Virus record (IMG/VR): IMGVR_UViG_3300030116_003118
Location: 1 to 64,000 of that record
Length of the DNA stretch: 64,000 bases
Strand: one strand, 5' to 3'
From: a virus
In this document: positions 10,278 to 13,195 of the stretch, in pieces
Layout: each line of letters begins with the position of its first letter
How positions within the stretch are numbered: position 1 is the stretch's first letter
Made by a program: the position numbers and the translations under genes
The notes under the pieces: generated by a model
Database searches by the model: none
Told to the model about the DNA's origin: nothing
The model's input: only the letters and a program-made list of their open reading frames with translations

Positions 10278-10991
10278 TTAAGCCAACCAAGCGGCCCAAG
10301 CAGCACCTTTAGAAATCATCTGCGATAGACCTAAACCACTTCTAGGTGGAGTATAGGTCATTTGACCCGTATTGGGGTCTATCCAGTAAGGATTCCCCAT
10401 TGTGTCCGTACCTGCTGGTGGAATTGGATAACCAGAATTGTTGCTAAATGCCTGTTGTTGCTGATACATGGCTTGATTAAACTGAGTTGCACCACCGCCA
10501 CCTTGAATCTGTGATGGGTCAACACCGCCGTTAACAGGCATTCCTGCCGATACTCCTACAGGTGCAGGTGCAGGGGCTTGTGGAGTAGGTGCGCTAAATC
10601 CTTGAGATTCTAAGTATTGACTCTTAGCCATCTTTCTTTGATAAACTACCTCAGAATTTATTGCAGTTGCTAATAATGTTTGTAAATCTAATTGTATGTT
10701 AGCCGCAGTTACAGCATTATAATCTGCCTGTGCAACAGAAGTCACACCTAACTCTGTACCTGTTCCTACAGTATCTAAACGTAGTTTTACTAATTGTTCA
10801 CTAACTACCTTTTCTACTACATCTTCTACTAGTTGTGCAAGCGCACCTAAAAACTGTTCACCGTGATAAGTAAAGAACTCTTCTACATGGTTCTCTTGTA
10901 AAGTTAGTAAATTATTTGTGGCTTTAAATTGAGCCTGACTCGTTGCATCTATTTGTTGTGCTATACTTCTATTTGATGTACCCCATACCAT
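10278..10991 (-). CDS. Gln/Pro/Gly-rich protein with C-terminal amphipathic helix
   Basis: Low-complexity Q/P/G tail ending GLGLSQMISKGAAWAAWLA. Confidence 0.6.
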   Translation of the reverse strand: MVWGTSNRSIAQQIDATSQAQFKATNNLLTLQENHVEEFFTYHGEQFLGALAQLVEDVVEKVVSEQLVKLRLDTVGTGTELGVTSVAQADYNAVTAANIQLDLQTLLATAINSEVVYQRKMAKSQYLESQGFSAPTPQAPAPAPVGVSAGMPVNGGVDPSQIQGGGGATQFNQAMYQQQQAFSNNSGYPIPPAGTDTMGNPYWIDPNTGQMTYTPPRSGLGLSQMISKGAAWAAWLA

Positions 10992-10992
10992 A

Positions 10993-11715
10993 TTATTGTG
11001 CCTCCAATTCTATTGCGTTTTCAGGTATCTCTACTTTATCCTGAGGAATAACTTGTGCGCCACTGGTCATTAATTCTAAAACTCTTTTATTAATGCCATT
11101 TTGTTCCATTGTTAATCGAAATAATTCGTCTTCCTTGTTTTCATTAGACATTTGAGGGGGCTTTATAGTCCACCCCATTCCTGACAAACTCTCTATGTCT
11201 GACTGCCTTAATGAAGTTAGCGGTGCTGATTGTAACATTTTAGGCACTTTGGGCATAGGTATGTATGATTCAAAAGAAAGACCATGTTCTTCCGCTATTA
11301 TTTGTTGCTCTAACATCTCATATTGTCTGTGCAATTGTGCATGTTTTTCACAGTAAGTTCCCCTCATAGGATAACCTTTTCTTACTTTGTGAAGAGGTAT
11401 TGTTGGTCTCATTGGGTCTGATGCTTCCCAAACCTTATGGGTTCCACATACAACACATCTATCCTTCGTATTAAATTTATAACTGTAAGGTATCTTCATA
11501 AAACTTTTTCTTTCAGGCCACAGTATCTTTAACATTTCTTTTAATTGTTTTCTAGGCTTACTGCTTTTATACTCATATTGCATAACTGAGCCGGGTGACC
11601 TAGCAAGTTTAATGGGAGGTAAAAAGGGATTTGCTGCTATTGTGTTATTAGCAGGTATTAAAGAAGGAGGCTGATAAGTAGGTGCTATTGTCATCTTTCC
11701 AACTCCGATTGCCAA
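10993..11715 (-). CDS. Zn-finger-containing hypothetical protein
   Basis: CVVC...YCEKH ligand pattern. Confidence 0.55.
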   Translation of the reverse strand: MAIGVGKMTIAPTYQPPSLIPANNTIAANPFLPPIKLARSPGSVMQYEYKSSKPRKQLKEMLKILWPERKSFMKIPYSYKFNTKDRCVVCGTHKVWEASDPMRPTIPLHKVRKGYPMRGTYCEKHAQLHRQYEMLEQQIIAEEHGLSFESYIPMPKVPKMLQSAPLTSLRQSDIESLSGMGWTIKPPQMSNENKEDELFRLTMEQNGINKRVLELMTSGAQVIPQDKVEIPENAIELEAQ

Positions 11716-11900
11716 TTCTCTTTACCCATCATCTCTAAGTCATTAAAAGTCATCTCTTTAAATATTGGATTACGGTTAGCAATCCTCATTATATGTGCCA
11801 CGGCTTCTTGTAGTTTTTGACCCGAATCGGGCATTTCTGTATTAAATGTTAACATCTTAGCGATGTCTTCAAACTCTTGATATATTGTTTTTTCTACCAT
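11691..11900 (-). CDS. Hypothetical protein
   Basis: 69 aa, translationally coupled to the GTPase gene. Confidence 0.5.
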   Translation of the reverse strand: MVEKTIYQEFEDIAKMLTFNTEMPDSGQKLQEAVAHIMRIANRNPIFKEMTFNDLEMMGKENWQSELER

Positions 11901-12568
11901 TAGTAATCCTCTATCATTGTTGAAATTCCTCTGTAAACCATTTCTGAATCTGATTTTGCACTTACTATATATTTGTATGTAGGTATGCCTTTATCATTTA
12001 ATTTATTTGCTCCATCTCTAAATGCTTGGAATATAGGGTGTTGTTGTATCTCTTTGTATTCATACCTGTCTTTCCATAGGTCATATTTGTTTGCCCATAT
12101 ACCTACTGCTTTTGGATAATCTTTATCAGATTTTTTATACTTTTTATTTACGTTGTCCCAATAAGGCGCACATATTGTATCTACTAAAAATGTCCAACAT
12201 AGTTGTTGTTCTATATCAAAGTGTTTTGTTAAATGTCTATCGTCAATCATAAAGATAATATATTCTACTTTTCTTTTTCTCATATCGTATAGCCATTCAT
12301 TCCAATATGTTGTTTCTCCTCCTATATCTGATGTTTTGATTGTGTGTTGGTCTCCATCAATTTTAATTGTTTTTCTTAATGCTCTTTCTCTTCCAACAGT
12401 TCTTTGTTTAATTTCTGGTACATCTCCTCTTGTTCTTAATTGATGATGTAATGTTGTTTTTCCTACTTGCGTAGCACCATATACTCCTACTGCATGTGGA
12501 TTTATTTTCTTCCAAAGTAATCCTAACTGCTCTATACAGATAATTACGAACCCTGTCATCACCGACAT
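11900..12568 (-). CDS. Ras-superfamily small GTPase with Arf/Sar-like features
   Basis: G1 GATQVGKTT, G2 RTVG, G3 DIGG, G4 NKYD, G5 SAK, plus an N-terminal hydrophobic helix. Confidence 0.85.
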   Translation of the reverse strand: MSVMTGFVIICIEQLGLLWKKINPHAVGVYGATQVGKTTLHHQLRTRGDVPEIKQRTVGRERALRKTIKIDGDQHTIKTSDIGGETTYWNEWLYDMRKRKVEYIIFMIDDRHLTKHFDIEQQLCWTFLVDTICAPYWDNVNKKYKKSDKDYPKAVGIWANKYDLWKDRYEYKEIQQHPIFQAFRDGANKLNDKGIPTYKYIVSAKSDSEMVYRGISTMIEDY

Positions 12569-12576
12569 TCAATCAC

Positions 12577-12795
12577 CTAGAAATGAAATATCGAAGTAAT
12601 ACCTCCCCAAAGCGTACTAAATAAATTAACACCAAACGATGGTAATGCATGACCAATACAAAAACTTACAAGAGAAGCAATAACTCCCCAAAAGTAAAAT
12701 CTTGCTCTTAGAAACCAAACATCTGCTGAATGCGCTCTTTGCATATCATACGCTAAAGCAGATTCATCCATACCAAATGCTATGGCTTCCAACAT
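12577..12795 (-). CDS. Small membrane protein
   Basis: Hydrophobic stretch FYFWGVIASLVSFCIG and amphipathic C-terminus. Confidence 0.6.
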   Translation of the reverse strand: MLEAIAFGMDESALAYDMQRAHSADVWFLRARFYFWGVIASLVSFCIGHALPSFGVNLFSTLWGGITSIFHF

Positions 12796-12799
12796 TTAA

Positions 12800-13195
12800 T
12801 CACTCAACCTGTGCTAAAAAGGGAGATACTTGGGGTTCTTCTGTTGTTACGGGTTGTGGTTGTATAGGCTGTCTATTCCAACTTTGGTTAAACTGTTGTA
12901 GGCTTTGACGAACCTTTTCTCTTTGTTGTTCATCTCTAGCCCTTCTAGCCCAATAAGCGGCAATTCTTCTGTCGAGTAAAGTCATCTCAATGTAGTCATT
13001 CAAAGCCAAATCAAACACGGCTTTCATTACAAGTATTCCACCAATGGTCATTAGTGAAAATACTATTGCATGTGCATAGTGTGAAAAGGCAAGTAAATTA
13101 CCATATTCAGCATAAAAGAAAACATTTATGCCACTAATGCAACCAACGAATAATATCGTCATTACTAGTTTTGTATCTTTTTCTAAAGCGGGCAT
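12800..13195 (-). CDS. Two-TM membrane protein with coiled-coil C-terminus
   Basis: Two ~20-aa hydrophobic segments followed by a charged/Gln-rich tail. Confidence 0.65.
   Translation of the reverse strand: MPALEKDTKLVMTILFVGCISGINVFFYAEYGNLLAFSHYAHAIVFSLMTIGGILVMKAVFDLALNDYIEMTLLDRRIAAYWARRARDEQQREKVRQSLQQFNQSWNRQPIQPQPVTTEEPQVSPFLAQVE

Follow-up and report, generated by a model that had tools for sequence, protein, structure and literature searches.

The window analyzed here is a 64,000-nucleotide stretch of virus DNA, positions 1 to 64,000 of the IMG/VR record IMGVR_UViG_3300030116_003118, which is 84,494 bases long and has a CheckV completeness of 90%. It is part of an 84.5-kb tailed archaeal virus of the magrovirus type, and between positions 10278 and 13195 its minus strand carries a cassette of five genes. 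These encode, in order, a 131-amino acid (aa) protein with two transmembrane (TM) helices, a 72-aa TM protein, a small GTPase, a Cys/His (zinc-type) protein and a Q/P-rich protein. The GTPase was found only in viruses at the sensitivity of the searches described below, and its gene keeps the same companions in related viruses, both between the capsid and tail genes and amid different flanks. The composition of the cassette suggests a module that might act on the membrane of the host under the control of a nucleotide switch.

Products of the five-gene cassette

The third gene of the cassette (11900-12568, minus strand) encodes the GTPase, a protein of 222 aa. Its translation contains GATQVGKT (G1, residues 30-37), KQRTVG (a G2 candidate, with T57), DIGGETTYWNEW (G3, with DIGGE at residues 81-85), YIIFMIDD, IWANKYDLW (the NKxD motif of G4, with NKYD at residues 160-163) and VSAKSDSEMVYRGI (G5, with SAK at residues 203-205). 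All the motifs that the initial annotation had quoted are among them, that of G2 as a candidate. The signatures GxxxxGK[ST] for G1, DxxG for G3, [NT]KxD for G4 and SAx for G5, together with a G-domain fold, are those of the Ras superfamily (TRAFAC class). An alignment of 26 family members, which reaches down to 26% identity, shows no variation at G31, G36, K37, T39, D81, G84, D109, N160, K161 or D163, while the conservation of S203 and A204 is 90% or more; judged from this alignment, the conservation of the motifs is far above chance expectation.

The AlphaFold2 model of the protein (pLDDT 77.8, pTM 0.76) consists of a helix at residues 2-22 and a canonical G domain, with an extra beta-hairpin inserted at about residues 134-150. 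The model represents a single predicted state, in which switch I has a pLDDT below 50. Foldseek returned at least 500 Protein Data Bank (PDB) matches at E <= 0.001, headed by mini-G-alpha, Arl2, Rab and Ras, with E values of about 1e-8 for Rab, Ras and G-alpha. Comparison by VIA, a search independent of Foldseek, gave Z scores of 13-16.6 across 150-184 residues to many small GTPases, in the order Arl2 (16.6), G-alpha-i1 (16.3), G-alpha-s (16.0), SR-beta (15.6), Arf6 (15.6 and 15.3), EF-Sec (15.3), Sar1 (15.1), LokiRagO (15.1) and the mimivirus Rab 5XC5 (14.6). Arf-branch proteins (Arl2, G-alpha-i, G-alpha-s, SR-beta, Arf6 and Sar1) make up six of the top eight rows of this ranking, with EF-Sec and LokiRagO practically level with them.

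A profile of the GTPase family searched against the PDB aligned over its N-terminal half and had as its top three Rab33B (1.4e-7), 8OUN (1.6e-7) and KRas, while the identity of the window protein to any solved GTPase is 20% or less. The second of these structures, 8OUN, is reported as the Asgard Arf-related GTPase GerdArfR1 (bioRxiv 10.1101/2024.02.28.582541). In the ESM Atlas the protein falls in clusters that are 92-100% viral, and the nearest named clusters are those of bacterial G proteins, in which 17-67% of the members carry PF00025 (Arf). At G3, the 26 family members mostly have DxGG or DxPG followed by E, Q or H, a form that we take to be in the style of Arf, Sar, G-alpha and SR-beta; one member has A. 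The window protein has Glu at this position (residue 85), and many of its close relatives have Gln. The best explanation is that the gene encodes a functional, very divergent small GTPase, which would belong to the Arf/Sar1/SR-beta/G-alpha branch.

The N-terminal hydrophobic helix (residues 2-22) of the window protein is followed by KK, and all 26 members of the family have an extension of 22-31 residues ahead of the P-loop strand, with a K/R cluster after a hydrophobic stretch of about 18 residues. The mean Kyte-Doolittle value of this stretch is 1.84 in the window protein (0.4-2.3 in the family), and its hydrophobic moment is 0.11 (mostly 0.05-0.35 in the family). According to the preprint on the Asgard proteins, the defining feature of Arf is an N-terminal amphipathic helix that binds to membranes in the GTP form (bioRxiv 10.1101/2024.02.28.582541). 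The viral N-terminus looks more like an SR-beta-style membrane anchor, or a deeply inserting helix, than like the classic amphipathic helix of Arf, and by these properties the GTPase is probably associated with a membrane.

The two genes that precede the GTPase gene encode the small membrane proteins, each described here from its translation and from an alignment of 13 orthologues. The 131-aa protein (12800-13195, minus strand) has hydrophobic helices at about residues 10-28 and 42-61, followed by RRIAAYWARRARDEQQREKVR; its C-terminal part is an amphipathic and charged helical tail with an invariant P..FL motif at the C-terminus, and 35 columns of the alignment are invariant. In its small size, its two TM helices and its charged C-terminus, the layout resembles that of a class II holin. 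The 72-aa protein (12577-12795, minus strand) starts with a highly conserved segment, ..DE..LAYD.QRAHSAD.WFLR.RF, predicted to be cytoplasmic, and continues with one TM helix and a hydrophobic tail; 24 columns are invariant.

The Cys/His protein follows the GTPase in the cassette. Its gene was assigned to 10993-11694 (minus strand), which gives 233 aa from a conserved ATG at 11694, a start that appears more likely than the TTG at 11715 with which the mechanical ORF (open reading frame) begins. The protein begins with a basic helix and continues with a CxxC knuckle (C80 and C83), a GTYCxxH motif (C115 and H118), a long helix and an acidic tail. Among 23 orthologues from three clades, C80, G84, G107, T113 and C115 do not vary, H118 is nearly invariant, and the second Cys of the first knuckle shifts its position between clades. 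Searches with the 23 members gave only scattered chance matches in Pfam at E <= 10 and no family, and the PDB profile search gave no matches at E <= 1. The model of the protein has a pLDDT of 61.4, and its best VIA match, at Z 5.3, is below the noise level stated for the tool. A predicted complex of the GTPase, GTP and Mg with residues 40-160 of the Cys/His protein scored 0.01 and 0.00 (mark 0.32), in a prediction made without controls and with an uncertain fold for the partner; these scores speak neither for nor against binding.

The last gene of the cassette (10278-10991, minus strand) encodes the Q/P-rich protein of 237 aa, which was aligned with orthologues from three clades (18 sequences). 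In all clades the protein has an N-terminal motif (MG.FG.SN in the relatives), a helical domain of about 90 aa and a low-complexity stretch rich in Q, P, M and G; it also contains the motif ..NPYWIDP.TGQ..Y.PP. A hydrophobic, amphipathic C-terminal tail (..KGAAWAAWLA) is kept in the clade of the window. None of the four proteins that accompany the GTPase matched a family of Pfam, PHROGs or NCBIfam. The initial annotation had characterized them as a 2-TM coiled-coil protein, a small TM protein, a Zn-finger protein and a Q/P-rich protein with an amphipathic tail, and their translations agree with this description.

Conservation, portability and distribution of the cassette

Relatives of the GTPase are numerous, with 340 found at E <= 0.001 in a database clustered at 90% identity. 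The 120 relatives listed have 59-98% identity to the window protein and come mostly from marine surveys, on contigs of up to 104 kb. A census was made on the best 80 of 212 IMG/VR loci selected by the GTPase, and the order protease, capsid, p111, (p104), 131-aa protein, 72-aa protein, GTPase, Cys/His protein and Q/P-rich protein, with the tail tube further on, was kept in all 80 as far as the flanks extend. Because this set had been chosen by the GTPase itself, the census was repeated with the capsid protein as the selecting gene, on the best 80 of at least 600 loci (some contigs are common to both sets), with the counts limited to those having enough downstream flank. The GTPase was present in 57/57 of these loci, the 131-aa protein in 68/68, the 72-aa protein in 63/65, with both misses located at the limit of the flank, the Cys/His protein in 43/43 and the Q/P-rich protein in 41/41. 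Furthermore, although this set is biased toward the capsid, in 51 of 53 capsid-selected loci the GTPase is closer to the window copy than the capsid protein is, the median identities being 66.8% and 61.2%, respectively.

Two distant clades were reached through phmmer matches, namely, P0132 (4 loci) and P0131 (81 relatives, of which 80 were kept), and 17 of the 84 loci were inspected. Their GTPases have about 33% identity to that of the window. All 17 loci have the GTPase followed by a protein of 256-357 aa, which aligned as a homologue of the Cys/His protein in 10 of them, and then by a protein rich in Q, P, M, G and N (fraction 0.36-0.57). Upstream of the GTPase, 16 of the 17 have an ORF of 143-272 aa and another of 72-95 aa, the remaining locus (L157) being without a small ORF in the second slot. 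A simple hydrophobicity scan recognized at least one TM helix in the first of these ORFs in 17/17 loci, and two in 6/17, and a TM helix in the small ORF in 11/16. When the two membrane proteins of the window were compared by hhalign with their positional counterparts in one P0132-clade locus (L084), the 131-aa protein gave an E value of 0.0029 with a probability of 10.7%, and the 72-aa protein gave 0.0053 with 6.8%. These scores are weak, so that a common architecture and position, and not proven homology, is claimed across the clades for the TM proteins. Most loci of the P0131 clade have an extra 2-TM protein of about 80 aa that follows. For three other distant homologues (P0155, P0144 and P0166) no confirmed IMG/VR locus was found.

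The flanks of the cassette in the two distant clades contain a thermosome, a protein of about 2000 aa, a D12 methyltransferase, a GP88-like protein, an HTH protein and an HMGL-like enzyme. Since the same gene order is kept amid different flanks, the five genes travel as a unit that is not tied to the virion module. The initial annotation had placed the cassette inside the virion module, which is correct for the clade of the window and does not extend to the other two, and the condition that it had set for a refutation, a cluster that is not conserved, is contradicted by the 57/57 capsid-selected loci, by the 80/80 GTPase-selected loci as far as their flanks extend, and by both distant clades.

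Some features of these flanks can be located more precisely. In the P0132 clade, the thermosome gene lies directly upstream of the cassette (5250-6785 in L081, Cpn60_TCP1 E 5.5e-133; 4820-6481 in L084), with a beta-rich protein resembling p104 ahead of it in L084. The thermosome is described as a hallmark of magroviruses (PMC5434244). Some loci of the P0131 clade have, directly upstream of the cassette, an ORF of about 2000 aa without a Pfam family (13-6102 in L118; also in L128, L150, L154 and L157).

The distribution of the GTPase was examined in cellular and viral databases. A phmmer search of 1.84 billion representative proteins gave 56 matches at E <= 0.001, all of them fragments or members of these viral clades, and no archaeal protein was among those with a usable label. 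Pattern scans of 185,579 species genomes matched only two contigs of one GenBank metagenome-assembled genome (MAG) of the bacterium 'Maricaulis sp.' (L165 and L166; NZMJ01000101.1 and NZMJ01000024.1), which are 28.9 and 12.2 kb long and encode GTPases of 77% and 60% identity. These are almost certainly mis-binned viral contigs. A tblastn search with the GTPase gave no match in 50,697 phage records. By these searches the GTPase is restricted to viruses. The initial annotation had considered a recent, sporadic acquisition from a host as the contrary case, and at this sensitivity (1.84 billion proteins and 185,579 genomes) such an acquisition is excluded.

The closest matches to the capsid protein, at 23% identity, are those of the haloarchaeal siphoviruses HCTV-1 and HVTV-1, and a capsid kinship of magroviruses to the same siphoviruses is described by Philosof et al. 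2017 (PMC5434244). In HCTV-1, eight small genes separate the capsid from the tail, and none of them encodes a P-loop or NKxD protein; by this comparison, the cassette is an insertion when set against the closest relatives in culture.

In the window, every gene from 1 to 47 kb is on the minus strand. The portal, the terminase and an ATP-dependent ligase are located upstream of the prohead protease (15403-16650, Pfam Peptidase_S78), which is followed by the major capsid protein (13983-15392, SU10_MCP / phrog_24667) and by the capsid-side gene p111 (13636-13971). A 121-nt gap separates p111 from p104 (13200-13514), the first gene after the gap, and the cassette comes next; four larger genes lie between the Q/P-rich gene and a tail-tube homologue (4861-6489, Pfam Phage_tube_2), all of these features being on the minus strand. 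The DNA ligase (16690-19200, minus strand; DNA_ligase_A_M E 2e-29) has 836 aa and sits within the head module, between the portal-side genes and the protease. The plus-strand arm of the window contains a short match to the ribonucleotide-reductase barrel (56322-58202), a ThiF-family protein (61395-61985, E 1.2e-16) and a tRNA-Leu(TAA) (50866-50952).

A variable slot between the GTPase and Cys/His genes is occupied in the window by an ORF of 69 aa (11691-11900, minus strand), which is outside the conserved cassette, has no homologue in 80 related loci and was not listed in the initial annotation. The locus L001, whose GTPase is 94% identical, has in the same slot an unrelated ORF of 71 aa (6669-6884). 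In most relatives the slot is empty and the Cys/His gene comes directly after that of the GTPase.

The gap between p111 and p104 contains a 15-bp RNA hairpin (13587-13621, minus strand), followed by a T-rich run at about 13570-13580 and then by an A/T-rich stretch. Its fold energy is -29 kcal/mol (z -5.46), and none of 200 shuffles was as stable. From p104 onward to the neck genes, the spacing between genes is -4 to 9 nt. The hairpin is likely the boundary between the capsid transcript and a unit that would start with p104 and the cassette, and it may act as a terminator or a processing site. Two marine metatranscriptome runs (X18 and X20) have contigs only over 13681-16200 (p111, capsid and protease), at 90-99% identity; X20 has in addition short pieces of about 22-33 nt near 5082-5103, 14695-14723 and 15655-15687, and a contig of depth 2.3 with a joint at 8636/12133 that has at most 21 nt on one side. 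In both runs the coverage stops about where p111 does, not far from the hairpin, which is at most a weak hint because a single study produced both. The cassette itself is covered by no RNA contig, long or short, and these data, being contigs and not reads, are uninformative on its expression. The matches indicate that relatives of the virus are present in RNA libraries, with carry-over of DNA not excluded.

Proposed function and alternatives

The cassette combines two small membrane proteins with a GTPase that is probably anchored to the membrane and resembles a branch working on membranes; a zinc protein and one of low complexity complete it. In the window this combination lies among late genes, and no lysis gene was found in the scanned ORFs. 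Taken together, these features suggest a GTP-switched module that would act on the membrane of the host late in infection, possibly for egress, a reading that we prefer while rating it at somewhat less than an even chance. The hydrophobic N-terminal helix and the basic cluster would hold the GTPase at the cytoplasmic face of the host membrane, where it would serve as the nucleotide switch of a self-contained module of five products. The two small TM proteins would be the membrane-active parts, and the zinc and Q/P-rich proteins would be a regulator or effector. Late in infection, the module would remodel, vesiculate or breach the cytoplasmic membrane of the host and thereby release the virions.

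A more specific form of this proposal sees the cassette as the egress machine of archaeal tailed viruses, in which a membrane-anchored GTPase of Arf/Sar type might time and drive two holin-like proteins, with the zinc protein as its GTPase-activating protein (GAP) or effector, and the host membrane would be vesiculated or ruptured. We regard this form as doubtful. With regard to lysis, no family was matched by 40 ORFs of the window searched against Pfam and 10 against PHROGs, a scan that did not include the remaining ORFs or positions 64001-84494 of the record. The statement of the initial annotation that the window has no recognizable holin or endolysin is valid within these two sets of ORFs.

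Several observations weigh against the proposal of a GTP-switched, Arf-type membrane module. The first concern the placement of the GTPase, which is below every Pfam GTPase cut-off (20 vs 21.9 bits for MMR_HSR1, 18.7 vs 21.6 for Ras, 18.4 vs 27 for Roc and 16.4 vs 25 for SRPRB, PF09439) and below that of TIGR00231 in NCBIfam (24.9 vs 42.5). PF00025 (Arf) has no match to the window protein at E <= 0.1 or to the six-frame translation of the record at E <= 1. Among the 26 family members, sub-threshold Pfam matches were found to MMR_HSR1 in 21, Roc in 18, Ras in 16, SRPRB in 16 and Arf in 10, the best of these weak PF00025 matches having an E value of 3.1e-6. In the fold ranking, translation-factor and Rag GTPases are nearly tied with the top rows, at Z values no more than 1.5 below. 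Because no curated cut-off is reached and PF00025 gives no score, the protein is better called Arf-branch-like than a member of the Arf family. The term Arf-like of the initial annotation can be kept for a resemblance, as seen in the fold ranking, the named Atlas clusters closest to the protein and the DxGG(E/Q/H) motif, and should be dropped as a family assignment, to which the missing PF00025 match and the N-terminal helix, which looks hydrophobic and not amphipathic, are opposed.

Other points in this group concern the mechanism. The low hydrophobic moment of the N-terminal helix implies that a GTP-dependent release of the helix in the style of Arf may not apply, and Glu after DxGG in the window protein, with Q, H or A in relatives, makes the chemistry of intrinsic hydrolysis uncertain. 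No holin, endolysin or other lysis family of Pfam, PHROGs or NCBIfam was detected in any protein of the cassette, and the 131-aa protein can be called holin-like by its size and topology only. Moreover, the location between capsid and neck genes in the clade of the window would fit a role in morphogenesis equally well. Finally, OapB (PF09846, ArvB) and OapC (PF09845, ArvC), the partner families in the ArvABC system of Haloferax, matched nothing in the 84.5-kb record, while both matched a Haloferax control, and OapC had no match in the 23 Cys/His orthologues even at E <= 10. With both families absent from the virus, the parallel to ArvABC is one of analogy and not of homology.

Morphogenesis is the first of two alternatives that we consider unlikely to about the same degree. 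The cassette would then provide a membrane-anchored platform or chaperone for the assembly of head and neck, or minor virion or ejection proteins, and the GTPase would be an assembly checkpoint. This is in keeping with the tight gene run of the window's clade, in which the cassette stands between the capsid and decoration genes and the presumed neck and tail-tube genes, and with a very high conservation that is typical of core structural functions; in the P0132 clade, the cassette adjoins a viral thermosome, which is a folding chaperone. However, this hypothesis is challenged by the non-structural flanks in the two other clades (methyltransferase, GP88-like protein, HTH protein, HMGL-like enzyme and the ~2000-aa protein), and the related halovirus HCTV-1 does without any P-loop or NKxD protein between its capsid and tail genes. 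In addition, we know of no requirement for membranes in the assembly of tailed viruses.

The second of these alternatives is that the module serves host takeover or protection at the membrane, for a purpose unrelated to release, such as superinfection exclusion, decoy vesicles, a rewiring of secretion or transport, or a membrane-bound compartment for replication or assembly. The same combination of membrane proteins and GTPase would serve such a purpose, the module is portable between genome neighborhoods like accessory modules, and GTPases of the ArvA type are reported to drive the release of vesicles without lysis (PMC10927574). Yet genes for exclusion and other accessory functions are usually patchy, whereas the cassette is found in every sampled relative, with a conservation above that of the capsid protein; in the clade of the window it is also co-oriented and tightly packed with late genes.

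Another explanation, to which we give a lower probability still, is that the switch is degenerate: one would be dealing with a pseudo-GTPase, or with a scaffold that is constitutively bound to GTP, in which the nucleotide is structural, and the module would not be timed by GTP. The Glu at position 85 of the window protein, the E, Q, H or A found there across the family, and the pLDDT below 50 of switch I are consistent with this idea. On the other hand, many close relatives have Gln at position 85, and the P-loop, DxxG, NKxD and SAx motifs are kept over a deep divergence, which argues that nucleotide binding is maintained; a GAP could also supply catalytic residues to a small GTPase. A sporadic gene of host origin with chance neighbors is highly improbable. 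In its favor, the automatic JGI label 'GTPase SAR1 family protein' on two relatives points to a generic likeness to cellular GTPases; against it, the protein and genome searches gave no cellular homologue, and the cassette is strictly syntenic and conserved in three clades.

Two further candidates were rejected: a tape-measure or tail-chaperone role, for which no such features are present, and a pseudogene or chance ORF, which is ruled out by conservation.

The hosts of this tailed virus are abundant archaea of the ocean. Magroviruses are given as the third most abundant group of marine viruses by Philosof et al. 2017 (PMC5434244), and a 2024 review states that, for archaeal tailed viruses, the principal factors of egress are completely uncharacterized (PMC10791045). 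For such a function, a GTPase exclusive to viruses, conserved to a higher degree than the capsid protein and embedded in a portable cassette beside membrane proteins, offers a concrete candidate. If the proposed egress function is true, the virus would have its own equivalent of GTPase-driven budding, as known for ArvA and Sar1, one that evolved outside cells and in a highly abundant group of ocean viruses. GTPase-controlled membrane action would then have evolved in a prokaryotic virus, which bears on the origin of Arf/Sar-type switches, beside ArvA and the Asgard ArfR proteins. Should its role lie instead in assembly or in the takeover of the host, the cassette would still be a core and hitherto undescribed module of a globally important virus group.

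Comparison with known systems

Full-text searches of the literature found no description of a magrovirus GTPase. The word 'GTPase' is absent from the main text of Philosof 2017 (PMC5434244), Lopez-Perez 2017 (PMC5628999), Liu 2021 (PMC8651126), Xu 2023 (PMC10160649) and Prabhu 2025 (PMC11706807), although supplementary gene tables may list the protein, for example as COG1100. An Arf-type GTPase has been reported in an Asgard region resembling a mobile element, and the report places it there and not in a tailed virus (PMC11529989).

Among virus-encoded GTPases, the Rab of mimivirus (5XC5) is also a member of the Ras superfamily and matches the fold of the window protein at Z 14.6. The mimivirus protein is a clear Rab that was acquired from eukaryotes. 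The magrovirus GTPase differs from it in having no cellular source family detectable by sequence and in belonging to a prokaryotic tailed virus.

The proteins of the Arf family, SR-beta and G-alpha have in common with the viral GTPase the G-domain fold, a GKTT P-loop, the DxGG(E/Q/H) and NKxD motifs, and a helix ahead of the G domain. The viral protein departs from the Arf family by giving no PF00025 score, by the Glu in place of the catalytic Gln or His, by the extra hairpin at about residues 134-150 and by being encoded in a tailed virus, within a fixed cassette with membrane proteins. Its N-terminal helix, hydrophobic and of low moment, appears nearer to the anchor of SR-beta than to the amphipathic helix of Arf. 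The viral GTPase has a hydrophobic N-terminus, where SR-beta has a TM anchor, yet it does not reach the SRPRB cut-off (16.4 vs 25 bits), and no SR-alpha-like partner was found for it, although no search aimed at one was made.

Class II holin cassettes resemble the viral block in their late-gene location and in the presence of a small 2-TM protein (here of 131 aa) with a charged C-terminus and of a second small TM protein. Unlike these cassettes, the viral block matches no holin family and no endolysin was found in the scanned ORFs. Genes for a holin and an endolysin are reported for the Adrikavirales (PMC11706807). Moreover, we know of no holin system that includes a GTPase.

A different parallel is offered by archaeal vesicle formation. 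In Haloferax volcanii, the small GTPase ArvA, which has an N-terminal amphipathic helix, is reported to drive the budding of vesicles, with ArvB and ArvC, a Zn-ribbon protein, as its partners (Mills et al. 2024, PMC10927574). In the same article ArvC is proposed to be GAP-like and behaves as a negative regulator. The viral cassette lacks ArvB and has in addition two small TM proteins and the Q/P-rich protein, whereas both systems are operons of the euryarchaeal world that combine a small GTPase bearing an N-terminal helix with a Zn-binding protein. By this likeness in composition, ArvA-ArvB-ArvC may be regarded as the closest functional analogue of the viral cassette.

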